From NCBI RefSeq assembly GCF_003334385.1, contig NZ_QOWN01000001.1: 64,000 nt of DNA; one strand, 5' to 3'. A model generated the notes under the pieces. That model saw nothing but the letters and a program-made list of their open reading frames with translations, made no database searches and had not been told where the DNA came from. Of this stretch, positions 15,823 through 61,112 are shown one piece after another; positions within the stretch are counted from its first letter, which is position 1, and every line of letters begins with the position of its first letter. A program made the translations under genes and the position numbers. The DNA comes from Escherichia coli (lineage in GTDB: Bacteria > Pseudomonadota > Gammaproteobacteria > Enterobacterales > Enterobacteriaceae).

Positions 15823-17020
15823 AACGGGTCACGATCTCGTCGAGTAATAATTGGCCAAGGAGCTCTTTGCGCTCAAGCGGTAAGACTTTATCTCCGTCCT
15901 GCCAGAAAAGGTGTAATGCGTTGTTGTCGCTGTTAAATCCTTGAGTTGGCTGGGAAACATCGTTCGCGCAGATCAGATCAAGGTTTTTACGGATACGTTT
16001 TTGCCGGGCGTATTCTTCCACATTATTTGTTTCGGCGGCAAATCCAACGACGTAGGGTCGATGGTCTTTTAGTGCGGCAACGCCTGCGACGATATCGGGG
16101 TTTTTAACCATTTTTATTGTTAATTCATCACCCTGCGTGGCCTGCTTTTTGATTTTCTCTGGGGCCACGGTAGCTGCGCGATAATCCGCCACGGCGGCGC
16201 AGCCGATAAAAATATTTTGCTGCTGTACAGAAGCATTCACGGCGGCTTCCATTTCCAGCGCGGTCATCACATCAACACGTTTAACAAACGGTGGCGTCGG
16301 TAGTGAAACCGGACCTGATACCAGCGTGACGTTCGCGCCACGACGGGCAGCGGCGGCGGCGATAGCAAAACCCATCTTGCCGGAGCTGTGATTAGAGATA
16401 TAACGCACCGGATCGAGCGGTTCACGCGTCGGGCCGGCGGTAATCATAATGTTCAGATGTTTCAGGTCGTTGACGGGCGAAAAATGCGCTACCGCCATAT
16501 CCACAATGGTTAACGGATCGAGCATTCGCCCAGGACCGATATCACCACAAGCCTGACTGCCACTGTCTGGCCCCCAGATGAGCAAACCACGGGAAGCAAG
16601 CACCTCTAAATTATGCTGCGTGGCAGCGGCACGGTACATCTGCTGGTTCATGGCGGGGAGCACGGCTACAGGCGCAGGTGTAGCCAGACAAATCGTCGAT
16701 ACCAGGTCATTCGCCATTCCGGCAGCAACACGGGCAATCAAATCTGCCGTGGCAGGGGCGAGAATCACTAAATCAGCCCATTTACCCAGCTCAATATGGC
16801 CCATAGCGGCTTCGGCTGCCGGGTCCAGCAGACTGTCGGAAACGGGATAACCAGAAACCGCCTGCAAGCTAAGTGGGGTGATAAAGGCTTTTGCCGCTTC
16901 GGTCATGGCTACGCGGACGTCGGCCCCGCGATCGCGCAAACGACGCACCAGTTCAGGGGTTTTATAGGCAGCAATACCGCCGCTAACGCCGAGAACGATT
17001 TTTTTACCGGCCAGGCTCAT
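15800..17020 (-). CDS. coaBC: Bifunctional phosphopantothenoylcysteine decarboxylase / phosphopantothenate-cysteine ligase
   Basis: ORF track frame 15800..17092; start at internal Met [20 protein letters not shown] (406 aa); 3' end overlaps dut start by 23 bp. Confidence 0.94.
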
Positions 17021-19446: not shown

Positions 19447-21211
<1,765 letters not shown>

Positions 21212-21557
21212 AGTAAATAGCTGACTTATGGATGTGCTGGGGATTCTATGTATTTAGCTGTGGCTTTACCATTACTTTTCCCGTTTTTGACTTAAATAGC
21301 TTCAGTTTGGTCTGATCTGCCGCTACATCTTCATTTTTTTTGTATTTTTATGCGATTCATTGAAACTCGGCCCCATTTTCAAATCTACATAGGCCGTACT
21401 GACATTATCGAAATGCTATTTTTTATCTATTTGATTTTTATGATTAAAGTATATTTTGTGTATAAAAATCATTCGGGTCGGATTGCTGCGAAAGAAATGA
21501 TACACTAGCACGTCAAAGTAAGTGCGTTATCAGTATTCAGGTAGCTGTTGAGCCTGG

Positions 21558-21569
21558 GGCGGTAGCGTG
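21558..21569 (+). promoter_or_regulatory. ops element (RfaH-dependent antitermination signal) in the waaQ leader
   Basis: GGCGGTAGCGTG, about 50 bp upstream of waaQ within a 405-bp AT-rich divergent intergenic region. Confidence 0.8.
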
Positions 21570-21616
21570 CTTTTTTCTGCTTAACTTAACCAGACAATCA
21601 CACAAAAGAGTCGCTA

Positions 21617-22687
21617 GTGGAAAAGCCATTTCGAAAAATCCTGGTCATAAAGATGCGATATCATGGGGATATGTTATTAACTACTCCTGTCATCAGTACG
21701 CTCAAGCAGAATTATCCTGATGCAAAAATCGATATGCTGCTTTATCAGGACACCATCCCTATTTTGTCTGAAAACCCGGAAATTAATGCGCTCTATGGGA
21801 TAAGCAATAAAGGTGCGGGAACTTTCGATAAAATTAAAAATGTGCTTTCGTTGATAAAAACTCTGCGTGCGAATAATTATGACCTGGTCATTAATCTTAC
21901 GGATCAGTGGATGGTGGCGCTGCTGGTACGTTGTTTACCTGCACGGATGAAAATATCGCAACTTTATGGTCATCGGCAGCATGGTATTTGGAAAAAAAGC
22001 TTCACACACTTAGCGCCAATACACGGTACACATATTGTTGAGCGTAATTTATCGGTCCTTGAGCCATTAGGTATTACCGATTTCTACACCGACACAACAA
22101 TGAGTTACGCCGAAGATTGCTGGAAGAAGATGCGCCGGGAATTAGATGCCCTGGGCGTAAAAGATCATTATGTTGTCATCCAACCGACAGCGCGTCAGAT
22201 ATTTAAGTGTTGGGATAACGATAAATTTTCTAAGGTTATCGATGCGCTGCAACAGCGAGGCTATCAGGTTGTGCTAACCTGTGGGCCCTCGGCAGATGAT
22301 CTCGCTTGTGTAGATGAGATTGCACGAGGTTGCGAAACAAAACCCATTACTGGCCTTGCAGGTAAAACACGTTTTCCTGAACTGGGTGCATTAATTGATC
22401 ATGCAGTGCTTTTTATTGGTGTGGATTCTGCGCCGGGACATATTGCAGCGGCAGTGAAAACGCCAGTCATTAGTCTATTTGGTGCAACGGATCACGTATT
22501 CTGGCGTCCCTGGACCGAGAATATTATTCAATTCTGGGCGGGGAATTATCAGAAAATGCCGACCCGGCATGAACTTGACCGCAACAAAAAATATCTTTCT
22601 GTTATCCCAGCGGAGGATGTGATCGCCGCTACGGAAAAGCTGTTGCCAGAAGATGCCCCTTCAGCTGACAGGAATGCACAATTATGA
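21617..22687 (+). CDS. waaQ: LPS core heptosyltransferase III
   Basis: 356-aa ORF from GTG 21617 (MEKPFRKILVIKMRYHGDMLL...); alternative ATG at 21653 gives 344 aa. Confidence 0.9.
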   Translation: MEKPFRKILVIKMRYHGDMLLTTPVISTLKQNYPDAKIDMLLYQDTIPILSENPEINALYGISNKGAGTFDKIKNVLSLIKTLRANNYDLVINLTDQWMVALLVRCLPARMKISQLYGHRQHGIWKKSFTHLAPIHGTHIVERNLSVLEPLGITDFYTDTTMSYAEDCWKKMRRELDALGVKDHYVVIQPTARQIFKCWDNDKFSKVIDALQQRGYQVVLTCGPSADDLACVDEIARGCETKPITGLAGKTRFPELGALIDHAVLFIGVDSAPGHIAAAVKTPVISLFGATDHVFWRPWTENIIQFWAGNYQKMPTRHELDRNKKYLSVIPAEDVIAATEKLLPEDAPSADRNAQL

Positions 22688-23808
22688 TCGTGGCGTTTTG
22701 TTTATATAAATATTTTCCATTTGGTGGGCTTCAACGTGACTTTATGCGCATTGCATCAACAGTTGCCGCACGGGGCCACCATGTTCGGGTATATACACAG
22801 TCGTGGGAAGGCGATTGCCCGAAAGCATTTGAGCTTATTCAGGTGCCAGTTAAGTCCCATACCAACCATGGACGCAATGCAGAATATTATGCCTGGGTAC
22901 AAAATCATCTCAAAGAGCATCCCGCAGATCGCGTTGTTGGGTTTAATAAGATGCCTGGCCTGGATGTTTATTTTGCCGCTGATGTTTGTTACGCCGAGAA
23001 AGTTGCGCAAGAAAAAGGTTTTTTATATCGTTTAACATCACGATATCGCCATTATGCCGCATTTGAGCGAGCGACTTTCGAGCAGGGTAAATCGACGAAA
23101 CTTATGATGCTGACCGATAAGCAAATCGCCGATTTCCAGAAGCATTATCAAACTGAACCTGAACGTTTTCAAATTCTTCCTCCCGGTATTTATCCGGACA
23201 GAAAATACAGTGAGCAAATCCCAAACAGCCGTGAAATTTATCGCCAGAAAAATGGCATAAAAGAGCAACAAAACTTATTACTGCAGGTTGGATCAGATTT
23301 TGGCCGTAAAGGTGTAGATCGCTCAATTGAAGCTTTGGCATCGTTACCGGAATCATTACGTCACAATACGCTTTTATTTGTTGTTGGTCAGGATAAGCCG
23401 CGAAAATTTGAAGCGCTGGCAGAAAAACTCGGCGTGCGGAGCAATGTGCATTTCTTCTCCGGTCGCAATGATGTGTCAGAATTAATGGCAGCCGCTGATT
23501 TATTACTGCATCCCGCTTATCAGGAAGCCGCGGGTATCGTTCTTCTAGAAGCGATCACTGCTGGGTTACCTGTTTTAACAACAGCGGTATGTGGGTACGC
23601 GCATTATATTGCGGATGCCAATTGTGGAACGGTCATCGCTGAACCTTTCTCTCAGGAACAATTAAATGAAGTTTTACGTAAAGCGCTAACTCAGTCGCCA
23701 TTGCGAATGGCCTGGGCGGAGAATGCTCGCCATTATGCCGATACTCAGGATTTGTATAGCTTGCCAGAAAAAGCCGCGGATATCATTACAGGTGGTTTAG
23801 ATGGTTGA
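22684..23808 (+). CDS. waaG: LPS core glucosyltransferase I
   Basis: 374-aa ORF; 4-bp overlap with waaQ stop. Confidence 0.95.
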
Positions 23809-24598
23809 ATTAAAAGAGCCGCTTGCCACACTTTGGCGTGGTAAAGATGCTTTTGCAGAGGTCAAAAAACTGAACGGCGAGGTCTTTCGTGAACTGGAGA
23901 CTCGTCGTACATTACGCTTTGAACTGTCCGGGAAAAGCTATTTTCTTAAATGGCACAAGGGGACGACATTAAAAGAGATTATAAAAAATCTACTCTCATT
24001 GCGGATGCCCGTTTTGGGCGCAGACAGAGAGTGGCACGCTATTCATCGCCTGAGTGATGTTGGCGTTGATACAATGAAGGGCATTGGGTTTGGCGAAAAA
24101 GGGTTAAATCCATTAACTCGCGCATCATTTATTATTACCGAAGATCTCACTCCCACAATTAGCCTTGAAGATTATTGTGCCGATTGGGCAGTCAACCCGC
24201 CTGATATACGTGTTAAGCGTATGCTGATCGCACGTGTAGCAACTATGGTGCGTAAAATGCATACTGCAGGGATAAATCACCGCGACTGTTACATTTGCCA
24301 CTTTTTGCTTCATTTGCCATTTACTGGCCGGGAAGATGAATTAAAAATTTCAGTTATCGATCTGCATCGGGCACAGATACGTGTAAAATTACCGCGCCGC
24401 TGGCGCGATAAAGACCTGATTGGTTTATATTTCTCATCAATGAATATTGGCCTGACGCAAAGAGATATCTGGCGATTTATGAAGGTTTATTTTGGGATGC
24501 CTTTACGCAAAATATTGTCTCTTGAACAGAATTTATTGAACATGGCAAGCGTTAAGGCCGAGCGTATTAAAGAGCGAACACAACGCAAAGGATTATAA
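23801..24598 (+). CDS. waaP: LPS core heptose(I) kinase
   Basis: 265-aa ORF; 8-bp overlap with waaG. Confidence 0.95.
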
Positions 24599-24634
24599 AA
24601 ATATTTATTAGTATGTACTGGAACTAACTTTATT

Positions 24635-25570
24635 ATGACTATTTATTTTATAAATTGGGTTGCAGATTATGAATTAAAAATGATTCAGTACCTGAAAAAA
24701 AAGTACAAGATAAAAAATATAACAACACCAAAAAAATATAACTGGATTAATAAAAAAATATCAAAAATAGGGATGGATAATGCATGGCTGGGGCGATTAT
24801 TCATCAAGCATTACCTCAATGATATTAAAAAAGATGACATAATTATCATTAATGACAGTGTTGTTAATAAAGGTATCAATAAACAAATATTAAAAAATAT
24901 TAACTGTCATAAAGTTTTGCTTCTAAGAAATACTGTTGGCGAAGATTTTATTCTTGATAACGCGAATTATTTCGATATTATATATGATTTTGAGCATAGA
25001 TTTATAGGGAATGAAAAGATCAAGGCAATAGAACAATTTTTTCCTATAGGAATGGATGAAATTAGAAATTATAGTTTATCTGACAAAAATAACAGCCAGC
25101 CAATATGTTTTTTCCTTGGTCGTGATAAAGGGCGTCTTCAAATAATTAATGAGTTAGCCGAGAGATTAACAACACTAGGATGTAAGCTAGATTTTAATGT
25201 TGTCAAAGATAAGACATCATCTACGACTTCAAAGTATTTGATTGAAAAACAAATATCTTATGAAGAGAATATTAGAAGAACATTAAATGCTAATATAATT
25301 GTTGATATAACCAAAGAAAACCAATCTGGCTGGACTCTTCGTATACTTGAGGCACTATTTTTCAATAAAAAATTAATTACTAATAATATAAATGTATTTG
25401 GTTCAGAAATCTATAGTGAATCTCGCTTTTTTATAATAGGTCATGATGATTGGGATAAGTTAGAGTATTTTATTAACTCATCTGTTAAACCAATGGATTA
25501 TGATAGTTTATATAAATTCAGTCCAGATAAAATGATGTCAACGATTGTTTCTGATTTTATAGACAAATAA
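24635..25570 (+). CDS. waaS: LPS core biosynthesis protein WaaS
   Basis: 311-aa ORF, very AT-rich; position and size fit K-12 waaS. Confidence 0.85.
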
Positions 25571-25613
25571 AACCGTTAAAACAGTGAGTTTTACTCAATT
25601 AATGAGAGTTTCT

Positions 25614-26693
25614 ATGAAAATAGCGTTTATCGGCGAAGCTGTTTCTGGATTTGGCGGCATGGAAACTGTCATCCGTGATGTTATTACTACCTTCAGGCAA
25701 CAACATATCCAAAGTGAAATGTTTTTCTTTTGTCGTAATGACAAAATGGATAAGGGATGGCTGGAAGGTATTAAATACTCATGTTCATTTTCCAATATTC
25801 GTTTAGGTTTTTTGCGTCGGGCGAAACATATTCATGCTCTAAGTAAATGGCTTCAGGAGTACCAACCAGATATCGTTATTTGTATTGATGTGATCTCCTG
25901 CCTGTTTGCCGCAAAAGCACGTAAAAAATCAGGAATTGATATGCCAGTATTTTCATGGCCACATTTTTCTTTAGATCACAAAAAACATGCTGAATATATC
26001 ACCTGTGCCGACTATCATTTAGCAATCAGCTCTGGCATTAAACAGCAAATGATTAATCGAGGTGTAGCAGAATCGACGATAAATGTTATTTTTAATCCCG
26101 TCGAAACTAAAGACTCAGTCATTCCCGCGCCCGAGGAAGGTGAAACGGCAACGTTTATTTATGTTGGGCGTATGAAATTTGAAGGCCAGAAAAGAGTTAA
26201 AGACCTGCTTGATGGCTTATCACAAGCGAAAGGTAACTGGAAACTCCATGTATTGGGTGATGGCTCCGATTTCGAAAAATGCCAGGCTTATGGTAGAGAA
26301 TTAAATATTGATGATCGAATTGTCTGGTATGGTTGGCAACAATATCCCTGGGAATTGGTCCAGCAAGATATTGAAAAAGTGAGTGCGTTATTGCTCACGT
26401 CATCTTTTGAAGGTTTCCCAATGACCCTACTTGAAGCCTTGTCGTGGGGGATTCCTTGTATCAGTGCCGATTGTGTCTCCGGGCCTGCTGACATTATTCA
26501 ACCTGATGTCAATGGCCATCTGTATCAACCGGGAGATATTGCTGGTTTTGTAACTCTTCTAAATAAATATATAGCAGGTGAAATTCATATCGAACATGAA
26601 AAAATTCCTGCGTCGATCGATGAATTTTACCAATCGAAGTATTACGATAGATTACATAAGGTAATTATTTCTGCTATTTCCCGGAGGAAATAA
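25614..26693 (+). CDS. waaB: LPS core alpha-1,6-galactosyltransferase
   Basis: ORF track frame from 25584; start at internal Met MKIAFIGEAVSGFGGMETV (359 aa). Confidence 0.9.
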   Translation: MKIAFIGEAVSGFGGMETVIRDVITTFRQQHIQSEMFFFCRNDKMDKGWLEGIKYSCSFSNIRLGFLRRAKHIHALSKWLQEYQPDIVICIDVISCLFAAKARKKSGIDMPVFSWPHFSLDHKKHAEYITCADYHLAISSGIKQQMINRGVAESTINVIFNPVETKDSVIPAPEEGETATFIYVGRMKFEGQKRVKDLLDGLSQAKGNWKLHVLGDGSDFEKCQAYGRELNIDDRIVWYGWQQYPWELVQQDIEKVSALLLTSSFEGFPMTLLEALSWGIPCISADCVSGPADIIQPDVNGHLYQPGDIAGFVTLLNKYIAGEIHIEHEKIPASIDEFYQSKYYDRLHKVIISAISRRK

Positions 26694-27712
26694 TGCAGCA
26701 GGTGTTTTTCCAGGAAACTGAGTTTCTTAATTCAGTTATTGATTATGATCATAAAGTAGAAACAGAAAATCTTTGTCTGGACATCGCTTATGGAACTGAC
26801 AAAAACTTTCTATTTGGTTGCGGAATTTCGATTGCTTCAATATTAAAATATAATGAAGGAAGTCGATTGTGTTTCCATATTTTTACTGATTATTTTGGTG
26901 ATGATGATCGTAAGTATTTTGATGCCCTGGCGTTGCAGTATAAAACCAGAATTAAAATATATCTGATTAATGGTGATCGACTGCGCTCATTGCCTAGCAC
27001 TAAGAATTGGACTCATGCAATATATTTTCGTTTTGTTATTGCAGATTACTTTATTAATAAGGCGCCTAAAGTCCTTTATCTGGATGCAGATATCATTTGT
27101 CAGGGGACTATTGAGCCACTAATTAATTTCTCATTTCCTGACGATAAAGTCGCAATGGTTGTTACAGAAGGGCAAGCTGACTGGTGGGAAAAACGCGCCC
27201 ATTCGTTAGGTGTTGCGGGAATTGCTAAAGGTTACTTTAACTCCGGTTTTTTATTGATTAATACTGCCCAATGGGCGGCTCAGCAGGTTTCTGCACGAGC
27301 TATTGCAATGCTAAATGAGCCAGAAATAATCAAAAAAATAACACATCCTGATCAGGATGTGTTAAATATGTTGCTGGCGGATAAACTTATTTTCGCTGAT
27401 ATTAAATATAACACCCAGTTCAGCTTAAATTATCAACTCAAAGAAAGCTTTATAAACCCAGTAACCAACGATACTATTTTTATCCATTATATCGGGCCAA
27501 CCAAGCCCTGGCATGATTGGGCCTGGGATTATCCTGTATCACAAGCCTTTATGGAGGCAAAAAATGCTTCGCCATGGAAGAATACGGCGTTGCTGAAACC
27601 GAACAATAGCAATCAATTAAGATATAGCGCAAAACATATGCTTAAAAAGCATAGATATCTAAAAGGATTTAGCAACTATCTTTTTTATTTTATTGAAAAG
27701 ATAAAGCATTAA
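26693..27712 (+). CDS. waaO: LPS core alpha-1,3-glucosyltransferase (GT8 family)
   Basis: 339-aa ORF; start shares a base with waaB stop. Confidence 0.9.
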   Translation: MQQVFFQETEFLNSVIDYDHKVETENLCLDIAYGTDKNFLFGCGISIASILKYNEGSRLCFHIFTDYFGDDDRKYFDALALQYKTRIKIYLINGDRLRSLPSTKNWTHAIYFRFVIADYFINKAPKVLYLDADIICQGTIEPLINFSFPDDKVAMVVTEGQADWWEKRAHSLGVAGIAKGYFNSGFLLINTAQWAAQQVSARAIAMLNEPEIIKKITHPDQDVLNMLLADKLIFADIKYNTQFSLNYQLKESFINPVTNDTIFIHYIGPTKPWHDWAWDYPVSQAFMEAKNASPWKNTALLKPNNSNQLRYSAKHMLKKHRYLKGFSNYLFYFIEKIKH

Positions 27713-27751
27713 AACTGGGAAACTATAAAGTAATGATATAAGGGTAGCATT

Positions 27752-28768
27752 GTGGACTCATTTCCTGCCATAGAGATAGATAAAGTTAAAGCCTGGGATT
27801 TTCGGCTAGCTAATATAAATACTTCTGAATGTTTAAATGTTGCCTATGGTGTCGATGCTAATTATCTTGATGGTGTAGGTGTTTCCATCACATCAATTGT
27901 CCTAAATAATCGACATATTAATCTTGATTTTTATATTATTGCTGATGTTTATAATGATGGTTTTTTTCAAAAAATTGCAAAGCTTGCAGAGCAAAACCAA
28001 TTAAGAATCACGTTATATAGAATTAACACTGATAAGCTCCAGTGCTTGCCTTGTACACAGGTCTGGTCAAGAGCAATGTACTTCCGTTTATTTGCATTTC
28101 AATTATTGGGTTTAACGCTTGATCGTTTGCTTTATCTTGATGCAGATGTTGTTTGTAAAGGCGATATTAGCCAACTATTACATCTGGGTTTAAATGGAGC
28201 GGTTGCTGCTGTTGTTAAAGATGTTGAGCCAATGCAAGAAAAGGCGGTATCCAGGTTGTCTGATCCTGAATTACTTGGGCAGTACTTTAATTCCGGTGTC
28301 GTTTATTTAGACTTAAAAAAATGGGCTGACGCAAAACTAACAGAAAAAGCGTTGTCTATTCTTATGAGTAAAGATAATGTTTATAAATACCCTGATCAGG
28401 ATGTTATGAATGTCTTACTGAAAGGGATGACATTATTTTTGCCTCGTGAGTACAATACAATTTATACAATTAAAAGTGAATTAAAAGACAAAACACATCA
28501 AAACTATAAAAAGCTGATTACAGAAAGTACTCTTCTTATTCATTATACAGGTGCAACTAAACCGTGGCACAAATGGGCAATTTATCCATCGGTAAAATAC
28601 TATAAAATAGCTTTAGAAAATTCCCCCTGGAAAGATGACTCTCCACGAGATGCGAAATCAATTATTGAATTTAAAAAAAGATATAAACATCTTTTAGTGC
28701 AACATCATTATATCTCAGGAATTATAGCAGGAGTCTGTTATCTTTGCCGAAAATATTACCGTAAATAA
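27752..28768 (+). CDS. waaJ: LPS core alpha-1,2-glucosyltransferase (GT8 family)
   Basis: 338-aa ORF from GTG (MDSFPAIEIDKVKAWDF...); paralogous to waaO. Confidence 0.9.
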   Translation: MDSFPAIEIDKVKAWDFRLANINTSECLNVAYGVDANYLDGVGVSITSIVLNNRHINLDFYIIADVYNDGFFQKIAKLAEQNQLRITLYRINTDKLQCLPCTQVWSRAMYFRLFAFQLLGLTLDRLLYLDADVVCKGDISQLLHLGLNGAVAAVVKDVEPMQEKAVSRLSDPELLGQYFNSGVVYLDLKKWADAKLTEKALSILMSKDNVYKYPDQDVMNVLLKGMTLFLPREYNTIYTIKSELKDKTHQNYKKLITESTLLIHYTGATKPWHKWAIYPSVKYYKIALENSPWKDDSPRDAKSIIEFKKRYKHLLVQHHYISGIIAGVCYLCRKYYRK

Positions 28769-28785
28769 CATTTAACTGGTTTATT

Positions 28786-29484
28786 ATGATTCAGAAGAGC
28801 AAGATCAAAGACTTGGTTGTTTTTACCGATGAAAACAATTCAAAGTACCTCAATGTATTAAATGACTTCTTGTCTTATAATATAAATATCATCAAGGTTT
28901 TTCGTTCTATTGATGATACAAAAGTTATGCTTATTGATACCGATTACGGTAAATTGATTCTTAAGGTTTTTTCTCCGAAAGTTAAGCGTAACGAACGTTT
29001 CTTTAAGTCTCTGTTAAAAGGTGATTATTACGAACGCCTTTTTGAGCAAACCCAAAAAGTACGAAATGAAGGGTTAAATACACTCAATGACTTTTATTTA
29101 TTGGCTGAACGGAAAACCTTACGTTTTGTCCATACTTATATCATGATCATCGAGTATATTGATGGCATAGAGTTGTGTGATATGCCCGATATTGATGATG
29201 CGCTAAAAAATAAAATTCAGCAATCAATTAATGCCTTACATCAACATGGCATGGTTTCTGGCGACCCCCATCGTGGTAACTTCATTATAAAAAATGGTGA
29301 GGTTCGAATTATCGATCTCTCCGGAAAGCGTGCTTCAGCGCAGCGTAAAGCGAAAGATCGTATTGACTTAGAGCGTCATTACGGTATTAAAAATGAGATT
29401 AGAGATCTAGGCTATTATCTTTTAGTATATCGTAAAAAAATGCGCAATTTTATGCGGCGTTTGAAAGGGAAACCAGCGCGCTAA
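28786..29484 (+). CDS. waaY: LPS core heptose(II) kinase
   Basis: 232-aa ORF, kinase-like. Confidence 0.88.
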   Translation: MIQKSKIKDLVVFTDENNSKYLNVLNDFLSYNINIIKVFRSIDDTKVMLIDTDYGKLILKVFSPKVKRNERFFKSLLKGDYYERLFEQTQKVRNEGLNTLNDFYLLAERKTLRFVHTYIMIIEYIDGIELCDMPDIDDALKNKIQQSINALHQHGMVSGDPHRGNFIIKNGEVRIIDLSGKRASAQRKAKDRIDLERHYGIKNEIRDLGYYLLVYRKKMRNFMRRLKGKPAR

Positions 29485-29554
29485 AAAAAATCCCACAATT
29501 ACATGTCTTCACCAGGACAGTTTTAAGCGGAGTTATTTATTTCACAGGTTTATC

Positions 29555-30406
29555 ATGAAGAATATTAGATACATTGACAAAAAAGATGTTGAAAACCTGA
29601 TTGAAAATAAAACATCTGATGATGTTATTATTTTTCTTTCGGGCCCTACATCGCAAAAAACACCTTTGTCAGTATTACGAACAAAGGATATTATTGCTGT
29701 CAATGGTTCTGCGCAATATCTGTTAAGTAATAATATCGTTCCTTTTATATATGTACTTACAGATGTCCGATTTTTACATCAGCGTCGTGATGATTTTTAT
29801 AAATTTAGCCAGAGAAGTCGTTATACCATAGTAAACGTTGACGTTTATGAACACGCTTCCAAAGAAGATAAACTTTATATCCTCCAGAACTGCCTCGTAT
29901 TACGGTCCTTTTACCGTCGGGAAAAAGGTGGTTTTATAAAGAAGATTAAATTTAATATTTTGAGACAGATTCACAAAGAACTGCTGATCTCTGTACCGTT
30001 GTCTAAAAAAGGTCGTCTGGTTGGATTTTGCAAGGACATTAGTCTTGGTTATTGCTCATGCCATACTATTGCCTTTGCTGCAATTCAAATCGCATATTCA
30101 CTTAAGTATGCGCGGATTATTTGTTCTGGTCTTGATTTAACGGGTAGCTGTTCTCGTTTCTATGATGAGAATAAAAATCCCATGCCCTCGGAATTAAGTA
30201 GGGATTTATTCAAAATATTGCCATTTTTTCGTTTTATGCATGATAATGTAAAAGATATTAATATTTATAATTTATCAGATGATACAGCTATTTCTTACGA
30301 TGTAATTCCATTTATTAAACTTCAAGACATCAGTGCAGAAGAATCAAAAGATATGACAAGGAAAAAAATGCAATATAGAACTTCAACCGATTCTTATGCT
30401 AATTAA
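29555..30406 (+). CDS. waaZ: LPS core biosynthesis protein WaaZ
   Basis: 283-aa ORF, AT-rich; position and size fit K-12 waaZ. Confidence 0.85.
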   Translation: MKNIRYIDKKDVENLIENKTSDDVIIFLSGPTSQKTPLSVLRTKDIIAVNGSAQYLLSNNIVPFIYVLTDVRFLHQRRDDFYKFSQRSRYTIVNVDVYEHASKEDKLYILQNCLVLRSFYRREKGGFIKKIKFNILRQIHKELLISVPLSKKGRLVGFCKDISLGYCSCHTIAFAAIQIAYSLKYARIICSGLDLTGSCSRFYDENKNPMPSELSRDLFKILPFFRFMHDNVKDINIYNLSDDTAISYDVIPFIKLQDISAEESKDMTRKKMQYRTSTDSYAN

Positions 30407-30438
30407 TCATCCTGAAACTAAAATAATATGGTATAAAA

Positions 30439-31512
30439 ATGCGCTTAGGAACTTTTCACAAAAAGAAAAGATTTTATATAAACAAAATCAAGATTAATTT
30501 CCTTTCTTTTTTATTTCGTAATAAAATAAATAATCAAATTACAGATCCAGCACAAGTTAAATCATGCCTTATTATTCATGATAATAATAAACTTGGTGAT
30601 CTAATTGTATTAAGTTCGATTTATCGTGAACTTTATAGTAAAGGGGTTAAAATAACTCTTCTCACAAATAGAAAGGGTGGGGAATTTCTCTCTAATAATA
30701 AAAATATATTTGAGTTCTGTATTAAAGAATCAACCGGTTTTCTTGAAATGCTTACTCTATGTAAGCATCTGCGGGATTTACAGTTCGATATTGTATTAGA
30801 CCCCTTTGAAACTATGCCCTCATTTAAGCATAGCTTAATATTATCAAGTTTAAAAGATTCTTACATTCTGGGTTTTGATCATTGGTATAAGCGTTACTAT
30901 TCATTTTACCATCCCCACGATGAATGTTTAAAAGAACATATGAGTACACGAGCAATAGAAATACTGAAGCATATTTATGGTGAGGGTAAATTTTCCACCA
31001 ACTACGACTTGCATTTACCAGTAGATGTTGAAGATAAAATAAAAGAATTTATTGGAGATACAAGAATAGTCATTATTAATCCATTAGGTGCAAAAAAAAT
31101 ATGCCGTCTTACGTTTGAGCAAATAAAAGTTATATATCAAGAAGTGAAAACACACTTTGAAAATTATCGGATTATATTTACCGGGTTACCGCAAGATTTA
31201 TTGACAATACCAATACTTGAAATCGAAACACTACCATTTGATGAGTTTATTTATACCGTTGCGTTGACCAAGTATAGTGATTTTGTCATTTCTGTTGATA
31301 CAGCTCTTGTTCATATCGCTGCGGCTTATCATAAACCAACGCTTGCATTTTACCCTAATTCACGTACTCCGGAATATCCCTCGCATTTAATTTGGTCCCC
31401 GAATCATCATAAATCTATACAAATAGTATCCCCAACATATACGGTAAAAGATATCGATACTGAAACTTTAACTAATTCAGTAAAGAGATTAAGTTGTATA
31501 GATAAGAAGTGA
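30439..31512 (+). CDS. waaU: LPS core heptosyltransferase IV
   Basis: 357-aa ORF; last gene of the long waaQ operon. Confidence 0.88.
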   Translation: MRLGTFHKKKRFYINKIKINFLSFLFRNKINNQITDPAQVKSCLIIHDNNKLGDLIVLSSIYRELYSKGVKITLLTNRKGGEFLSNNKNIFEFCIKESTGFLEMLTLCKHLRDLQFDIVLDPFETMPSFKHSLILSSLKDSYILGFDHWYKRYYSFYHPHDECLKEHMSTRAIEILKHIYGEGKFSTNYDLHLPVDVEDKIKEFIGDTRIVIINPLGAKKICRLTFEQIKVIYQEVKTHFENYRIIFTGLPQDLLTIPILEIETLPFDEFIYTVALTKYSDFVISVDTALVHIAAAYHKPTLAFYPNSRTPEYPSHLIWSPNHHKSIQIVSPTYTVKDIDTETLTNSVKRLSCIDKK

Positions 31513-31526
31513 GTTTTAACTCACTT
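31507..31526. terminator. Hairpin between convergent waaU and waaL
   Basis: Inverted repeat AAGTGAG-ttttaa-CTCACTT spanning the waaU stop codon. Confidence 0.45.
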
Positions 31527-31543
31527 CTTAAACTTGTTTATTC

Positions 31544-32803
31544 TTAATTAATTGTATTGTTACGATTATTAATGACGAGTAAGAGGACTATAGCGGATAT
31601 AATGATAATTGGAATGCTGCGTGCCCATATGATCACATCACTGAGTCCAATCCCCACAATGCCAAGCGTTAATATCAACAAACCCAAAGCTCGTTTTTTA
31701 TATGCTATATAAAATAGTGAAAAATAGAGGAAAAGTGTGGAAAAAATTCCCATCAGACCTTTCAGTGACCCTGCTTCAATTATCTCATTATGTAGATGTA
31801 CGTTAGAAAACTCCAATGCCCCTCTTAGCCTATTGTGTTCTGCAACTAACAAATTCATACTTTCAGCGCGTGACTCTGCTGATCTAAATGAAAAAGGTGA
31901 CTTTATGAATATATTTAAACCAATTTCGTACATTGCCAGTCTTGCACCTAGGGAAGTAACACTATTAGCATTGGTATAACTGTTTAAGTCATTTAATGCT
32001 TCATTATAGCGATTCTGTATTGGTTTATTAAATATAATAACAATGCTAGCTAATATAGCAATTAGTAGAACAATAGAGGAAGTGAATTTCTTGGGTGATT
32101 TATTATAATAAGCTATTAATGCAGCAACACAAATTATAGGGAACAGGAGTAGGGTTGCTCTGGTTTGTGTTAGCGCCAGAACATAAAGTACCGCGCAACT
32201 ATTTAATAAAAATAAAAAAGGATGATTTTTCTTAGTATAAAGAATCGCAACGCCACTAACTATCCCTATTAGCATTGTTGAATATGCTGCTCCTGTTGCC
32301 GTTCCTACACCAAAAGAAATGCGGTCATTTTCATGAATGCTATTAATATACATTGCATATCCAGCAATTAGAAATGACAGAGAATACAAAGTGTATAATA
32401 CACTCTCTTTTTTTGATTTTAGCTGGCTAGTTAGTGTCAAGAAAACAATAAAAGAACCAAATATAAATATTTTGGCAGTATTTAAATAACTATGGTAAGT
32501 AGCACGAAATGGCGAATTATCTACTTTAAACGCAGAATACCAAATTAAATCAAGCAAGCCTATTAAAAATATAGAAAGGGGAAGAATAAGGTTTTTTATA
32601 TTATAATTTTCTTGTCTGCCACGTAAAATTAGTGACAATAAGCAAACTATAGCAGTGATATTATATATTTTTATGCTGAAAGTATTATCGACGAATGCAA
32701 TTATCATTGAAAAAAAACATAATATATAAGTTATTATCTCTAAAATCATTGATGATTTCAGAGTGTAAGGTTTCAATGAATGAAGTTTAAAGGATGTTAG
32801 CAT
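31544..32803 (-). CDS. waaL: O-antigen ligase
   Basis: 419-aa polytopic membrane ORF, very AT-rich. Confidence 0.9.
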   Translation of the reverse strand: MLTSFKLHSLKPYTLKSSMILEIITYILCFFSMIIAFVDNTFSIKIYNITAIVCLLSLILRGRQENYNIKNLILPLSIFLIGLLDLIWYSAFKVDNSPFRATYHSYLNTAKIFIFGSFIVFLTLTSQLKSKKESVLYTLYSLSFLIAGYAMYINSIHENDRISFGVGTATGAAYSTMLIGIVSGVAILYTKKNHPFLFLLNSCAVLYVLALTQTRATLLLFPIICVAALIAYYNKSPKKFTSSIVLLIAILASIVIIFNKPIQNRYNEALNDLNSYTNANSVTSLGARLAMYEIGLNIFIKSPFSFRSAESRAESMNLLVAEHNRLRGALEFSNVHLHNEIIEAGSLKGLMGIFSTLFLYFSLFYIAYKKRALGLLILTLGIVGIGLSDVIIWARSIPIIIISAIVLLLVINNRNNTIN

Positions 32804-32812
32804 GTTTTACCT

Positions 32813-33772
32813 TTATAATGATGATAACTTTTCCAAAACTGCTTGACTGTTGAGGTTAATTAAATTTTCTCTTGGAGCCCTACATACCATCTGATTCTTC
32901 CCATACCCACCAATTAATCCCGGATCGGTTGGTCCATAAACCGTGATATTGGGTCTATCCAGTGCCGCCGTTAAATGGCTTAACCCCGTATCCACCGACA
33001 CTACAAATTTAGCCCCGGCCAGCACGCGGGCAACGCCTTCCAGACTCATCTTCGGCAATACTTCAACATAAGCAAATCCTTCCGCCAGTCGTTTCGCCCG
33101 TTCTTCCTCATGCGGCGCGCCCCACGGAAGTTTAATCCGTATTCCTGAATCAGCCAGTAAACCAATCAATTCTCGCCAGTGTTCTTCCGGCCAGTGTTTA
33201 TCATCACGGGTCGTCGCATGAAGAAATACGGCATATTCGCCAGCATCTGTAGGCAGGTTCGTCAGAAAATGCTGTGCGATAGCATAATCGCCCTGGGTTT
33301 GCGGTTTGCTATAGCCCAAACTTTTGGCAAACAGTTCGCGGGTGCGTTCTACGGCGTGCTGCTGTTTTGCAATATGATGCTTACGATTGTAAAACAGGCT
33401 GGCTAAAGGTTCGCGAGCGGTTTGCCAGTCCATGCCATGCTTTACGCCATGCGCCAGACGCGTCACCAGCGCCGCGCTTTTTACCAGCCCCTGAGCGTCG
33501 ATAACTGCGTCATAGTTCTCTGCTTGTAGCGCTTCACGAAACGCTTTGCGTTCCGCTTTTATGGGGGCCGAGAACCAGGCTTTACGCCAGCGACGTATTG
33601 CCACAGGAATAACTCGCTCAACGGCAGCGTGCCAGGAAGGAATCTGTGCGAACCCTTCTTCCACCACCCAGTCAAACTTAATCCCTGGGATTGCCTGCTG
33701 GGCATCAGTGAGTGCGGGCAACGTATGGAGAACATCGCCCATCGACGATGTTTTAACGATCAAAACCCGCAT
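32813..33772 (-). CDS. waaC: LPS heptosyltransferase I
   Basis: 319-aa ORF MRVLIVKTSSMGDVLHTLPALTDA... Confidence 0.95.
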   Translation of the reverse strand: MRVLIVKTSSMGDVLHTLPALTDAQQAIPGIKFDWVVEEGFAQIPSWHAAVERVIPVAIRRWRKAWFSAPIKAERKAFREALQAENYDAVIDAQGLVKSAALVTRLAHGVKHGMDWQTAREPLASLFYNRKHHIAKQQHAVERTRELFAKSLGYSKPQTQGDYAIAQHFLTNLPTDAGEYAVFLHATTRDDKHWPEEHWRELIGLLADSGIRIKLPWGAPHEEERAKRLAEGFAYVEVLPKMSLEGVARVLAGAKFVVSVDTGLSHLTAALDRPNITVYGPTDPGLIGGYGKNQMVCRAPRENLINLNSQAVLEKLSSL

Positions 33773-33775
33773 CCG

Positions 33776-34822
33776 TCAGGCTTCCTCTTGTAACAATAGC
33801 GCGTTGAGTTCTTCCAGTACGCGCTGGGGAGTAATGTTGATTAAGCTCTGGTGATAACCCTCCGCAGCGTCACCTTTACGCACTTTGTGATAGCCGGTAA
33901 TCAAACGGATCACGCGCGCTTTATGGGATAGCGGCGGTGTGAAGTCCGGGCTACTCGGACCATACAGGGCAACCAGCGGACGATTGAGCGCCGCCGCAAC
34001 ATGCATCAGGCCAGAATCGTTAGTGACAATGGCTTTACAGGCTGCAATCAGGATAACCGCTTGATCAAGCTGTGTTTCCCCCGCCAGGTTCCGACACCAT
34101 GCCTGCTGCTCGGTATTCAAAGCGGCAAGAATCTCATTGCCCGCTTCATGATCTTTCGCCGAGCCAAACAGAACCACCTGATAACCTTCATCAATCAGCT
34201 GCTTTGCCAGCTCCGCATAGTGGTAGTGTGGCCAGCGTTTTGCCGGACCAAACTCCGCACCCGGGCAAAAACCAATCATCGGACGTTCTGATGAAAGCGA
34301 AAATTGATTACAGGTATATGATTTTTCACCTTCGCTCACCTGCAACTGCGGCCATAACAATGGCTGCGGCAGATCTTGTGCTGTGCGCATAATGCCTTTG
34401 TCATAGGCCAGCGCTATATAGCGTTCCACCATTAGCGGCCAGGCTTCTTTATCGAGCACGCGTACATCGTTGAGTAAACCGTAGCGCATCTCGCCGCGCC
34501 AGCCGGTGCGATGAGGAATACCCGCGAAGAAAGGCACTAATGCAGATTTGAAGGAGTTGGGTAAGACGTAGGCGCGGTCGTAGCGCTTTTCACGCAGGCT
34601 ATGACCCAGTTTGCGGCGTTCGCCGATTTCCAGCGCTCCGTGACCGAGAGGCATAGGAATAGCTTCGTTAACTTCCGGCATCCGCGATAATAATGGACGG
34701 CACCATGCCGGTGCCATCACATCGATTATCGCCTGGGGATAGCGCGCCTGGAGCGTGCGATAGAGACTTTGCGACATCATCATGTCGCCAACCCAAGACG
34801 GGCCGATCACCAGTATTTTCAT
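33776..34822 (-). CDS. waaF: LPS heptosyltransferase II
   Basis: 348-aa ORF MKILVIGPSWVGDMMMSQSLY... Confidence 0.95.
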   Translation of the reverse strand: MKILVIGPSWVGDMMMSQSLYRTLQARYPQAIIDVMAPAWCRPLLSRMPEVNEAIPMPLGHGALEIGERRKLGHSLREKRYDRAYVLPNSFKSALVPFFAGIPHRTGWRGEMRYGLLNDVRVLDKEAWPLMVERYIALAYDKGIMRTAQDLPQPLLWPQLQVSEGEKSYTCNQFSLSSERPMIGFCPGAEFGPAKRWPHYHYAELAKQLIDEGYQVVLFGSAKDHEAGNEILAALNTEQQAWCRNLAGETQLDQAVILIAACKAIVTNDSGLMHVAAALNRPLVALYGPSSPDFTPPLSHKARVIRLITGYHKVRKGDAAEGYHQSLINITPQRVLEELNALLLQEEA

Positions 34823-34831
34823 GCAGAGCTC

Positions 34832-35764
34832 TTATGCGTCGCGATTCAGCCAGGCCATGTATTCCGTTACACCTTCAGCAACGGTTTTGAACGGTTTGTC
34901 GTAACCCGCCGCGCGCAGATTTGTCAGATCTGCCTGAGTGAACGCCTGATAGCGGCCTTTCAGTTTATCCGGGAACGGAATGTATTCGATCTGGCCTTTC
35001 TTGTGATAAGCCAGCGTAGCATCAGCTACCGCCTGGAAGGATTCCGCACGACCAGTACCGAGATTGAAGATGCCGGAAACGCCATTTTCCAGGAACCACA
35101 GATTCACATCAGCCACGTCGCCCACATAGACGAAGTCGCGTTTGAAGTTCTCGCTACCTTCAAACAGCTTCGGTGATTCACCGTTGTTAAGCTGGGTGTT
35201 GAGATGGAAAGCGACGCTCGCCATGCTGCCTTTATGGCCTTCACGCGGTCCATAAACGTTGAAATAACGGAAGCCAACAATCTGCGAGTTCGCTTCAGGC
35301 AGGATTTGACGAACATATTCATCAAACAGGAATTTTGAGTAACCGTAGACGTTCAACGGTTTTTCGTACTCGCGGGATTCAATAAAGTCGGAGGTGCGTC
35401 CGCCGTAGGTGGCTGCGGAAGAAGCGTACAGGAACGGGATTTCACGCTCCAGGCAGTAGTGCAGCAGCTCCTTGGAGTATTGATAGTTGTTATCCATCAT
35501 ATACTTGCCGTCCCACTCGGTGGTGGAAGAGCACGCGCCTTCGTGGAAAATCGCTTCGACATCGCCGAACTCTTCGCCAGCCATAATCTGGATCAGGAAG
35601 TCTTCCTTATCCATATAGTCTGCGATATTCAGATCCACCAGGTTCACAAACTTGGTGCCGTCTTTCAGGTTGTCCACCACCAGAATATCGGTGATGCCTT
35701 TATCATTCAGGGCTTTAACGATGTTGCTGCCGATAAAGCCCGCGCCGCCGGTAACGATGATCAT
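34832..35764 (-). CDS. hldD: ADP-L-glycero-D-manno-heptose 6-epimerase
   Basis: 310-aa [23 protein letters not shown]... with Rossmann GxGxxG; first gene of hldD-waaFCL. Confidence 0.96.
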
Positions 35765-36067
35765 AACTGTAACCTTCGAATTATGGAGTCAGAGACAATC
35801 TCAGACACGAATGTCTGTAATCATACCATCACATCCGAATCCCTTCAGCCCTTTACATAGAGGTGCAAGGATGCTAATTGCAACAAACTAGTTTGGGTTT
35901 TAGCTAGTCCTTCATGGCGGATGTTGGTTTTGCATGTGAATAGTGCTTTAGTATCAATATTCCGATGTATGATAAATAACGGAAGCATTTGAATGGATAA
36001 TATACAGTATACATTCTATTAATATTTATGATATAATTCTTTTTTTATATTAATGGTCTTATTAGTA

Positions 36068-36925
36068 ATGAAATCATCCACCACAATTATCACTGCATAT
36101 TTTGACATTGGTAGAGGGGATTGGACTGCTAATAAAGGGTTCCGTGAAAAACTAGCTCGTTCAGTTGATGTTTATTTTAGTTACTTTGAGCGTCTGGCCG
36201 CACTTGAAAATGAGATGATTATTTTCACTTCTCCCGATTTGAAACCAAGGGTTGAAGCGATTCGCAACGGAAAACCAACAACGGTTATCGTTATCGATAT
36301 AAAAAAGAAATTTAGATATATCAGAAGTCGTATCGAAAAAATTCAAAAAGATGAGTCGTTTACAAATAGACTTGAGCCTCGACAATTAAAAAAACCAGAG
36401 TACTGGTCACCAGAGTATGTTTTGGTATGTAACCTTAAGGCCTATTTTGTAAATAAAGCTATCAACATGGGCTTAGTGAAAACGCCTCTTGTTGCGTGGA
36501 TAGATTTTGGCTATTGCCGTAAGCCAAATGTAACTCGAGGATTGAAAATTTGGGATTTCCCATTTGATGAAAGTAAGATGCATCTTTTCACTATAAAAAA
36601 AGGGCTTACTGTCACATCTCAACAACAGGTTTTTGATTTCATGATTGGCAATCATGTATATATTATTGGGGGCGCAATTGTTGGTTCACAGCATAAATGG
36701 AAAGAATTCTATAAATTAGTTCTGGAAAGTCAAAAAATAACACTAAATAATAACATTGTGGACGATGACCAGGGCATTTTTGTCATGTGCTATTACAAAC
36801 GCCCCGATCTCTTCAACCTAAACTATCTGGGGAGAGGAAAATGGTTCGATTTGTTTCGCTGCTTCAGGAGTAACACTTTAGGGGCAAAAATGCAGGCGCT
36901 GAGAATTTTCCTTTCAAGAAAATAG
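36068..36925 (+). CDS. htrL: HtrL (YibB) protein
   Basis: ORF track frame from ATG 36053; start placed at ATG 36068 (MKSSTTIITAYFDIGRGDW...) by recollection of a 285-aa product, start choice uncertain; AT-rich gene. Confidence 0.8.
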   Translation: MKSSTTIITAYFDIGRGDWTANKGFREKLARSVDVYFSYFERLAALENEMIIFTSPDLKPRVEAIRNGKPTTVIVIDIKKKFRYIRSRIEKIQKDESFTNRLEPRQLKKPEYWSPEYVLVCNLKAYFVNKAINMGLVKTPLVAWIDFGYCRKPNVTRGLKIWDFPFDESKMHLFTIKKGLTVTSQQQVFDFMIGNHVYIIGGAIVGSQHKWKEFYKLVLESQKITLNNNIVDDDQGIFVMCYYKRPDLFNLNYLGRGKWFDLFRCFRSNTLGAKMQALRIFLSRK

Positions 36926-37199
36926 GTTTCCCTCCATTAGTGGGTAGCGTTTTGATACCAACTGAGATAGGAAAAATGATGCTTTGGCATCATTTTTTCT
37001 TTTTATATCAATGCAGTAAAATCAATCATCATTATGCCCAGCCAAAACTGTACAGCTTTTCTACTATCTGTAGGTGTTGAGAGACATCAAGTTACACGTT
37101 ATTTATCCTGAATTTTGCAGAAGTGTTAACGCGTTATCTCGTCGCGACCTATAAGTTTGGGTAATATGTGCTGGAATTTGCCCTGTCTGGAGAATCGCA

Positions 37200-39669: not shown

Positions 39670-40704
39670 ATGATGAACAGCACCAATAAACTTAGTGTTA
39701 TTATTCCGTTATATAATGCGGGCGATGATTTCCGCACTTGTATGGAATCTTTAATTACGCAAACCTGGACTGCTCTGGAAATCATTATTATTAACGATGG
39801 TTCAACGGATAATTCTGTTGAAATAGCAAAGTATTACGCAGAAAACTATCCGCACGTTCGTTTGTTGCATCAGGCGAATGCTGGCGCATCGGTGGCGCGT
39901 AATCGTGGGATTGAAGTGGCAACGGGCAAATATGTCGCTTTTGTCGATGCTGACGATGAAGTCTATCCCACCATGTACGAAACGCTGATGACCATGGCGT
40001 TAGAGGACGACCTCGACGTGGCGCAGTGCAACGCTGACTGGTGTTTTCGTGAAACGGGAGAAACCTGGCAATCCATCCCCACCGATCGCCTTCGCTCAAC
40101 CGGCGTATTAACCGGCCCGGACTGGCTGCGGATGGGGCTTTCTTCGCGCCGTTGGACTCACGTTGTCTGGATGGGGGTTTATCGCCGTGATGTTATTGTT
40201 AAAAATAACATTAAATTTATTGCCGGATTACATCATCAGGATATTGTCTGGACAACAGAATTCATGTTTAACGCGCTGCGTGCGCGATATACCGAGCAAT
40301 CATTATATAAATATTATCTGCATAATACGTCAGTGAGTCGGTTGCATAGACAAGGGAATAAAAACCTTAATTATCAACGTCACTATATTAAGATTACCCG
40401 CCTGCTGGAGAAATTAAATCGAAATTATGCCGACAAAATTATGATTTATCCGGAATTTCATCAGCAAATAACTTACGAGGCATTGCGTGTTTGCCATGCG
40501 GTGCGCAAAGAGCCGGATATTCTTACCCGCCAACGGATGATTGCCGAGATATTTACTTCCGGTATGTATAAGCGCCTGATTACCAATGTGCGCAGCGTGA
40601 AGGTCGGTTACCAGGCGTTACTGTGGTCTTTCCGCTTATGGCAATGGCGCGACAAAACGCGGTCGCACCATCGCATTACGCGTAGCGCCTTTAATTTGCG
40701 CTAG
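39670..40704 (+). CDS. waaH: Family-2 glycosyltransferase WaaH (YibD)
   Basis: 344-aa ORF MMNSTNKLSVIIPLYNAGDDF... with DxD-type motif (VDADDE). Confidence 0.88.
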   Translation: MMNSTNKLSVIIPLYNAGDDFRTCMESLITQTWTALEIIIINDGSTDNSVEIAKYYAENYPHVRLLHQANAGASVARNRGIEVATGKYVAFVDADDEVYPTMYETLMTMALEDDLDVAQCNADWCFRETGETWQSIPTDRLRSTGVLTGPDWLRMGLSSRRWTHVVWMGVYRRDVIVKNNIKFIAGLHHQDIVWTTEFMFNALRARYTEQSLYKYYLHNTSVSRLHRQGNKNLNYQRHYIKITRLLEKLNRNYADKIMIYPEFHQQITYEALRVCHAVRKEPDILTRQRMIAEIFTSGMYKRLITNVRSVKVGYQALLWSFRLWQWRDKTRSHHRITRSAFNLR

Positions 40705-59509: not shown

Positions 59510-59968
59510 GGGGGAGGGGGGAGATTATGGAACTTTGCTCCTTGTAAGGACTAATTATTTTTGCATATTACTTCATTAGCTGCGATGATTTTTCTTTAAT
59601 ATTCATTATGTTAATAAGTTCTGGATGAGTGTGCTCTCATTGGATTTTTTATCCGTCTTGTTCTGCCGCAGGATGAGACTATACATCGTCGAGATCGCAA
59701 TGATGATATGAGTTGTTCCTCCTGCGACGGCTCTAATCAAAAAAGAGCAGGAGTGCTTTTCCATCTATTGCGATGATGGCTTTATTATCTGAAGGATGAC
59801 AGTCACATTTAAAAAATATTTAATCTATAGATCACAATGTAGGGTCATGGAATATATGTATACAACTATTTTCTTCTTCACTTTTAATTATCGTATTCAT
59901 TATAAAACTAAGTTAAAAAAACTCCTGGAGAGTGAGTTATTAATATATTTTTAAATAAAATTAAGTTA

Positions 59969-61110: not shown

Positions 61111-61112
61111 TT

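Follow-up and report, generated by a model that had tools for sequence, protein, structure and literature searches.

The AT-rich centre of the Escherichia coli K-12 waa cluster is probably an old, replaceable core-type cassette

The DNA under study is a stretch of 64 kb (hereafter the window) of an Escherichia coli contig, NZ_QOWN01000001.1, which carries the waa (rfa) cluster for the core of lipopolysaccharide (LPS) and, in the middle of it, a block of conspicuously AT-rich genes running from waaS to waaL. Over the 15 kb around this block, identity to K-12-derived genomes is 100%, and RefSeq annotates one such genome as waaQ-G-P-S-B-O-J-Y-Z-U, the convergent waaL, waaC-F-hldD, yibB (htrL), kbl and tdh, in agreement with the gene names and coordinates of an initial annotation of this DNA. 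From waaA to kbl, the gene content and order are those of the K-12 core type; in fact, set beside the E. coli K-12 waa locus of the five-core-type scheme (K-12 and R1-R4; Heinrichs/Whitfield, Amor et al.), the sequence, the genes and their order are identical and nothing essential differs. From its composition, breakpoints, allelic replacement, mosaicism, cross-genus synteny, ops/JUMPstart leader and lack of mobile marks, we consider it very probable that the block is an allelic cassette, old and replaceable, that is swapped by recombination in its flanks, and not a recent, K-12-specific import. The elements of the locus, with their guanine plus cytosine (GC) contents and sizes in nucleotides (nt) or bp, are as follows.

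19934-21211, minus strand: waaA, Kdo transferase; left flank, 53.9% GC, with 95-100% identity to every other core type in 200-nt windows
21212-21616, plus strand: waaA-waaQ intergenic region and waaQ leader; 37% GC, 57-84% identity to the R1/R3/R4 class, the point where allele divergence starts
21531-21569, plus strand: JUMPstart element; Rfam RF01707, 55.2 bits (gathering score 35)
21617-24598, plus strand: waaQ, waaG and waaP (inner-core heptosyltransferase III, glucosyltransferase I and HepI kinase); 44.3% GC plateau
24495-32873, no strand: type-specific cassette, bounded by the loss of homology to other core types; 8379 bp, 33.3% GC
24635-25570, plus strand: waaS, WaaS/CpsH-family glycosyltransferase; 26.8% GC, K-12-specific, with a GT8 gene there in R2 and Salmonella
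25614-29484, plus strand: waaB, waaO, waaJ and waaY (outer-core hexosyltransferases and HepII kinase); 34-40% GC, 84-94% nucleotide identity to R2
29555-31512, plus strand: waaZ (Kdo III transferase) and waaU (GT9 family); 31-33% GC, R2 having waaK for waaU
31503-31530, plus strand: hairpin with a 12-bp stem where waaU and waaL converge, overlapping the stop codon of waaU; by consensus match only, a candidate terminator for both directions
31544-32803, minus strand: waaL, O-antigen ligase; 31.9% GC, convergent, final gene behind hldD-waaF-waaC
32813-35764, minus strand: waaC, waaF and hldD; right flank, 52% GC, 96-99% identical to other types from 32873/32874 on
35813-37095, plus strand: htrL (yibB) islet; 1283 bp, 36% GC, with the gene at 36068-36925 and a terminator-like hairpin at 36969-37000

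Among the NCBIfam models, those matched by WaaZ and YibB/HtrL are equivalogs, and WaaS falls in the WaaS/CpsH glycosyltransferase family.

The AT-rich block is real and far beyond chance. Between 24600 and 32810 the GC content is 0.3325, against 0.525 over positions 1-21211 and 0.520 over waaC-hldD (32813-35764), whereas waaQGP stands at 0.443 and htrL at 0.369; a binomial test of the block against the flank value gave z ~ -34. The 1-kb windows outside 21-37.5 kb have a mean GC of 0.512 with a standard deviation of 0.051, such that the block lies about 3.5 standard deviations below the mean across eight consecutive kilobases. The sharp AT-rich block that had been placed by eye at 24600-32810 was thus borne out by a GC plot (33.3% against 52-52.5% in the flanks), with coordinates good to about 100 nt. 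An anomalous composition of this kind (33.3% versus 52% GC) is one feature expected of a mobile genomic island, and a tract of 8.4 kb at 33% GC is AT-rich over the kilobase lengths that characterize H-NS-type DNA.

The borders are stepwise. In sliding windows of 500 nt, GC is 0.52-0.55 over mutM, coaD and waaA, dips to 0.37-0.44 at 21.0-21.7 kb, holds steady at 0.42-0.47 through waaQ, waaG and waaP, runs at 0.25-0.43 from about 24.5 to about 32.9 kb and is back at 0.53-0.54 within one step at about 33 kb. Maximum-likelihood changepoints fall at 21194, 24407, 32873, 35751 and 37179. The left side of the trough therefore consists of two steps, one at about 21.2 kb (the waaA start and the intergenic region) and one at about 24.4-24.5 kb (the 3' end of waaP), with a flat plateau of 44% GC between them. 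The initial annotation had described a transition inside waaQ-waaG-waaP: the intermediate GC is indeed there, but no gradual change was seen, and the placing of the transition within these genes did not hold, as a 200-nt identity scan shows allele divergence beginning already at 21.2 kb.

Every gene of the block is low in GC at all three codon positions: third positions have 0.23-0.35 against 0.48-0.63 in the comparison genes, first positions 0.33-0.49 against 0.56-0.65 and second positions 0.24-0.36 against 0.34-0.43. The residues K, N, I, F and Y together make up 29-45% of the block proteins versus 18-20% of those of waaA, waaC and waaF (30% in hldD). The minimum of the block, 26.8% GC, is waaS.

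We then compared the region with one R2, two R1, one R3, one R4 and one divergent K-12-type locus, aligned with BLASTN and MAFFT. On the left, homology to the other types is lost at 24494-24508 (24494 for R1, R3 and R4), within the last 30-35 or so codons of waaP; past 24494, where the DNA alignment ends, the WaaP tails are still recognisably homologous as proteins. On the right, homology returns at 32873-32874 (32856 in R4, 32892 in R3), inside the last 20 or so codons of waaC. On the right, GC changepoint and homology junction agree to the base (32873); on the left, the changepoint at 24407 precedes the junction by about 90 bp. Outside, the flanks are 95-100% identical across types in 200-nt windows. 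Inside (24495-32873), R1, R3 and R4 match only weakly, at waaO and waaY (64-68%), and R2 is homologous over 25613-30319 only, from waaB into the 5' part of waaZ, with 84-94% identity, and is without waaS, waaU or the K-12 waaL. These three type-specific genes are absent from all the R1-R4 loci compared.

All five E. coli cassettes, of 5.4-8.6 kb, sit in the same slot, bounded by the 3' ends of waaP and waaC, and several non-homologous alleles at one slot with conserved flanks are what defines a replacement-type polysaccharide locus. The earlier description of the block as the cassette that defines the core type is upheld, since between the conserved flanks it is replaced in R1, R3 and R4 by non-homologous or strongly diverged sequence and in R2 in part, and the proposed comparison with the R1-R4 clusters has located the breakpoints at 24494-24508 and 32856-32892. 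Low GC is common to the alternatives.

Cassette GC by core type: K-12, 33.3%; divergent K-12, 33.0%; R2, 35.2%; R1, 35.1-35.2%; R3, 33.4%; R4, 34.7%

Three tiers of identity mirror the three tiers of GC, namely the flanks at 52%, the waaQGP classes at 44% and about 48%, and the non-homologous cassettes. Because the junctions fall inside waaC and waaP, the C-terminal 20 or so residues of WaaC (32813-32873) and 35 or so of WaaP (24495-24598) co-vary with core type, and WaaC ranges from 318 to 330 amino acids across the types.

The waaQGP genes form two deep allele classes, the K-12/R2 class with 44% GC and the R1/R3/R4 class with about 48% GC, which share 62-84% nucleotide identity; K-12 and R2 are mostly 84-98% identical over the intergenic region and waaQGP. 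Directly beside these divergent classes (21200-24494) lies a waaA with 95-100% identity. Of 5426 complete E. coli genomes, 1032 have the full K-12 cassette, in two allele classes: in 459 genomes it is at least 99% identical and sits on K-12-class waaQGP, and in 566 it is about 95.8% identical and adjoins R1-class waaQGP, the crossover being at about 24.25-24.4 kb, inside waaP. The R1 cassette, in turn, may or may not be accompanied by the htrL islet, so one and the same cassette is met on different flank haplotypes. The view that the core-type cassette moves between lineages was confirmed by the two waaQGP backgrounds of the K-12 cassette, and the pattern, which agrees with the published inference, points to exchange by homologous recombination in the conserved flanks. 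A three-tier GC pattern, the lack of insertion sequence (IS) and phage remnants and horizontal transfer by homologous recombination have already been published (Leclercq et al., 2021; PMC8715443); R2 has been described as a K-12/Salmonella hybrid, and K-12/R2 hybrids have been reported (PMC13293308).

A mobile island was considered as the vehicle and rejected: no tRNA or tmRNA lies in the window, so the block is not a tRNA-adjacent insertion, no repeats beyond chance-level AT-rich matches were seen at the block boundaries, and the RefSeq annotation of the region holds no integrase or mobility gene, all annotated genes there being LPS genes. The flanking repeats and the integrase or transposase of a mobile island are thus missing, and IS elements are present only as sporadic insertions in other strains. 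Within the AT-rich waa cassette of some genomes we noted IS1 (a Citrobacter contig, 15430-15864), IS2 (E. coli LS992166) and ISVsa5 (strain 3985), and E. coli strain YJX carries about 1.2 kb of additional sequence inside the 15-kb region.

A plasmid vector was likewise rejected, the sole match in the plasmid collection being a 1.9-kb assembly fragment: NZ_CP051612.1, a 1907-bp "plasmid" of an ST131 strain, is a waaU-waaL fragment of 97.3% identity and probably an assembly leftover. A phage vector was rejected too, as the two "Campylobacter phage" matches at 100% are K-12 chromosome in UNVERIFIED, unannotated records. These 174-kb records, MG065686.1 (A18a) and MG065691.1 (A11a), titled "UNVERIFIED: Campylobacter phage", hold the block at 100% identity, and a stretch of A18a is collinear with window positions 4493-52874 (48.4 kb) at 99.96%; contamination or mislabelling has thus put E. 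coli K-12 chromosome under the name of a phage.

The same slot was found in other genera. On a Salmonella Infantis contig, the same chromosomal site has genes in R2-like order, with a GC profile of 53% / 48% / 37% / 54%. A protein search with WaaS turned up homologues in several species of Citrobacter (49-55% identity), and C. amalonaticus and C. sedlakii have the full K-12 order waaQGPSBOJYZU with a convergent waaL, then waaC and waaF, among the same neighbours as in K-12 (slmA, dut, coaBC, radC, rpmBG, mutM, coaD and waaA). Their cassettes have 40-42% GC versus 53-56% in the flanks, and their proteins are 50-69% identical to those of K-12 in the cassette and 84-96% in the flanks. As trough and gene order are common to the genera while the cassette proteins are only 50-69% identical, the arrangement is old. 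Low GC is thus a property of the slot and not of K-12. The trough is shallower in Citrobacter, where waaL has 47-49% GC against 32% in K-12, and since individual cassette genes differ by 2-17 GC points between the two, their composition has moved since the split. Homologues of the central region have been stated to be lacking beyond Escherichia and Shigella (PMC8715443), which needs qualifying because Citrobacter has the full K-12-type gene order; the statement appears to hold only at the nucleotide level. A search of the available literature found no relevant published description of the Citrobacter waa cluster. A WaaS relative of 32% identity in Pseudomonas sp. v388 was rejected as a clue to a donor, as it lies in an unrelated context of host composition adjoining glmS.

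Taken literally, horizontal acquisition would mean that the K-12 lineage recently imported the block from a low-GC donor species, whose signature survives as the low GC. The sharp GC steps do coincide with homology breakpoints, the bias reaches every codon position and the protein composition, as in genes from a genome of about 33% GC, and published papers call these operons horizontally acquired. Against such an import stand the trough common to five E. coli cassettes, Salmonella and Citrobacter at the same site, the age of the K-12 gene order in Citrobacter, the substitution pattern given below, the lack of mobile-element marks and a protein search that found no WaaS relative above 55% identity outside E. 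coli; we hold it to be highly improbable. CpsH is a capsule gene name in low-GC Gram-positives, which is a lead only.

Substitutions were polarised by parsimony between two K-12 cassette alleles over waaB-waaZ, with R2 as outgroup. We counted 75 GC>AT and 77 AT>GC changes, which imply an equilibrium GC (GC*) of 0.352 for a current GC of 0.346. A substitution regime maintaining 52% GC predicts AT>GC and GC>AT changes at about 2:1, whereas 1.03:1 was observed (z ~ -4.2), so there is no net change toward GC; in an AT-biased process the errors of parsimony push the number of AT>GC changes up, which makes the conclusion that no amelioration is under way conservative. These counts suggest that the cassette is near a steady state of about 35% GC, and with a stationary composition low GC alone would be no argument for a recent foreign origin. 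In the flanks, recent GC>AT and AT>GC changes number 39:24 and 14:8, with GC* at about 0.40, below the flank GC of 0.53. A fair reading is that the cassette lies near the equilibrium of the short-term spectrum, and that the flanks are kept above it by a longer-term force that seems ineffective in the cassette. As to the earlier words "horizontally acquired", the cassette does move between lineages, but a foreign donor would have to be assumed for DNA whose composition appears stationary and whose low GC recurs in all five cassettes, Salmonella and Citrobacter.

The same numbers bear on the idea that there was no foreign donor, and that these are ancient balanced alleles of weakly expressed, fast-evolving genes that drifted in place to an AT-biased mutational equilibrium. 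The match of 0.352 to 0.346 fits it, as does a flank spectrum of about 0.40, well under 0.53; GC is graded with allele divergence (flanks 52%, waaQGP 44-48%, cassette 33-35%), the same genes stand 2-17 GC points apart in K-12 and Citrobacter, and cassette proteins evolve much faster than flank proteins. But the samples are small and parsimony may mis-polarise. The R1 cassette yielded few polarised changes, 13 versus 17, and its GC* of 0.41-0.43 against a current 0.36 comes from 30-62 GC<->AT changes only; steps that are sharp within tens of bases are equally expected of recombination junctions, and the AT-rich single-gene htrL islet, a plain insertion or deletion, is left unexplained. We regard drift in place as possible though rather unlikely. 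The same tentative standing applies to its mechanism, by which non-homologous alleles could not recombine internally, so that GC-biased gene conversion and/or selection for GC would be ineffective. Somewhat more doubtful still is the wider proposal that the low GC of waa cassettes, and with it that of other polymorphic loci for surface polysaccharides, arises in place in non-recombining, trans-genus balanced alleles at an equilibrium of about 35%.

The leader of the waaQ operon links the block to its regulation. The ops element (GGCGGTAGCGTG) at 21558-21569 is the 3' end of JUMPstart, 48 nt upstream of the waaQ start, at the very position given in the initial annotation, and is the only ops match in the window. 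An ops element (GGCGGTAGnnTG), the site of RfaH recruitment, within JUMPstart in the transcribed leader of a long operon is the mark of an RfaH/ops operon. The element at 21558-21569 has a conserved counterpart in every one of the five core types and in Citrobacter; among the 12 loci compared, 11 have it, the exception being the unrelated Pseudomonas locus. No other Rfam RNA family was found in 20.5-38 kb, besides a sub-threshold chance match to a snoRNA (small nucleolar RNA). The coding strand of the waaQ operon has 17.1% C, close to the published 17.4% (Hu and Artsimovitch; PMC5449661). In K-12, H-NS is enriched on waa and represses it, and rfaH suppressors map to hns and rho; in MG1655, expression of the distal waa genes depends on RfaH and is limited by Rho/NusG (PMC5449661). 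In CFT073, the rfaQ/waaG operon is bound by H-NS (PMC9765446). The link to H-NS that had been suggested for this DNA thus has published support in H-NS enrichment and RfaH/Rho dependence of the waa operon, although our literature search for K-12 H-NS chromatin immunoprecipitation data naming individual rfa genes found nothing more specific than these two papers (PMC5449661, PMC9765446).

AT-richness may be what makes the operon depend on RfaH. The earlier proposal that a long AT-rich operon explains the ops element is plausible for the waaQ operon but incomplete, for waaL is AT-rich and has no ops: it is the last gene behind hldD-waaF-waaC and therefore not downstream of the element, and the hairpin at 31503-31530 separates the waaQ operon from the waaL transcription unit. 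Another explanation starts from this regulation, and holds that AT-richness is kept by selection, with H-NS recruitment and RfaH dependence coupling core synthesis to other RfaH-controlled surface structures. The conservation of ops/JUMPstart in every core type and in Citrobacter is in its favour, as are the published H-NS enrichment and the suppressors in hns and rho (PMC5449661). The sigma-70-like matches are more ambiguous: 42 of the 55 between 21 and 37.5 kb lie in the block, a load of spurious promoters of the kind that H-NS reportedly silences, but shuffles that preserve composition give 53.3. As the count equals that of the shuffles, it is a by-product of composition, and promoter-like enrichment was rejected as an independent signal. 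With waaL equally AT-rich outside the ops operon, and with Citrobacter retaining ops over a much shallower trough, we find such selection improbable.

In the explanation that we favour, the block would be the K-12 allele of the type-determining central waa segment, one of five alternative cassettes in the same slot. Its products (WaaB, WaaO, WaaJ and WaaU, the modifying WaaS, WaaY and WaaZ, and the ligase WaaL) would fix the K-12 core structure. Exchange would proceed by homologous recombination in waaA or waaQGP on the left and waaC-waaF-hldD on the right, with no mobile element. The arrangement and its GC trough would be old, common to Salmonella and Citrobacter, with a composition now stationary near 35%. 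According to the literature, the AT-rich, C-poor operon would be coated by H-NS and prone to Rho/NusG polarity, and RfaH loaded at ops in the waaQ leader would carry RNA polymerase through the 10-gene operon.

Several points weigh against this explanation or parts of it. The steady-state test comprises about 150 parsimony-polarised changes in one pair of alleles, with an outgroup only 87% identical, and the substitution pattern of the block is not significantly different from the short-term pattern of the flanks (z ~ -1.5). One or two representatives were aligned per core type, and breakpoints elsewhere may differ. H-NS binding and RfaH dependence are taken here from papers (PMC5449661, PMC9765446), and the AT-rich waaL is convergent, lacks ops and lies outside the ops-controlled operon in K-12. 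As for the ultimate origin, the AT-richness may stem from a foreign low-GC donor or from drift toward AT in place.

The nearest parallel is with the O-antigen (rfb) clusters, which lie between galF and gnd in E. coli and Salmonella, have a JUMPstart/ops leader and are RfaH-dependent; ops sites have been published for wzx and kps. Both loci have polymorphic, low-GC, non-homologous alleles at a fixed site, recombination in the flanks, JUMPstart/ops and RfaH; unlike rfb, waa has only five main alleles, its waaO and waaY can still be aligned and its junctions are inside conserved coding genes. With classical genomic islands and H-NS-silenced xenogeneic DNA, the block shares low GC, sharp borders and published H-NS binding. 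But no tRNA, repeats or vector copy was found, no integrase is annotated and the slot is filled in every genome, unlike in genomic islands, and unlike H-NS-silenced DNA, waa is expressed constitutively via RfaH. The Salmonella enterica and E. coli R2 loci share the site, the stepwise trough and the waaB-waaO(I)-waaJ-waaY-waaZ segment; they differ from K-12 in having a GT8 gene for waaS, waaK for waaU and a different waaL, with the R2 homology restricted to 25613-30319.

The GC pattern, the interpretation and the regulation of the waa cassette are already known, and the waa operon is a textbook target of RfaH anti-termination and of H-NS. To the work of Leclercq et al. (2021; PMC8715443) we add small increments, namely the base-level junctions in waaP and waaC, the K-12-type architecture and gene order in Citrobacter and an apparent stationarity of composition, a hint that bears on why polysaccharide loci are AT-rich. 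The cassette matters because it sets the LPS core type and, through it, phage receptors, the specificity of O-antigen ligation, sensitivity to serum and antimicrobial peptides and immune recognition.

Beyond hldD, htrL had been pointed out as a second AT-rich gene, which its GC of 0.369 supports. Its islet, a clean presence/absence polymorphism, contains only htrL/yibB, whose function is uncharacterised, and the terminator-like hairpin. It is present in 1950 of the 5426 E. coli genomes, independently of core type, with about 61 bp in its place elsewhere, and is absent from the Salmonella contig. No target-site duplication was seen at its borders, the left of which is weakly similar for about 45 nt.

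Two other low-GC stretches were noted in the window. The gene waaH (yibD; UDP-glucuronate:LPS(HepIII) glycosyltransferase) at 39670-40704, outside the waa cluster, has a GC of 0.41-0.45 in 500-nt windows and is a third low-GC LPS-related gene. From 59100 to 64000, where 1-kb windows go down to 0.33, lie the rhsA tip, yibA, RHS fragments, yibG, an Imm57 pseudogene and yibH/yibI, an AT-rich Rhs toxin/immunity tail.

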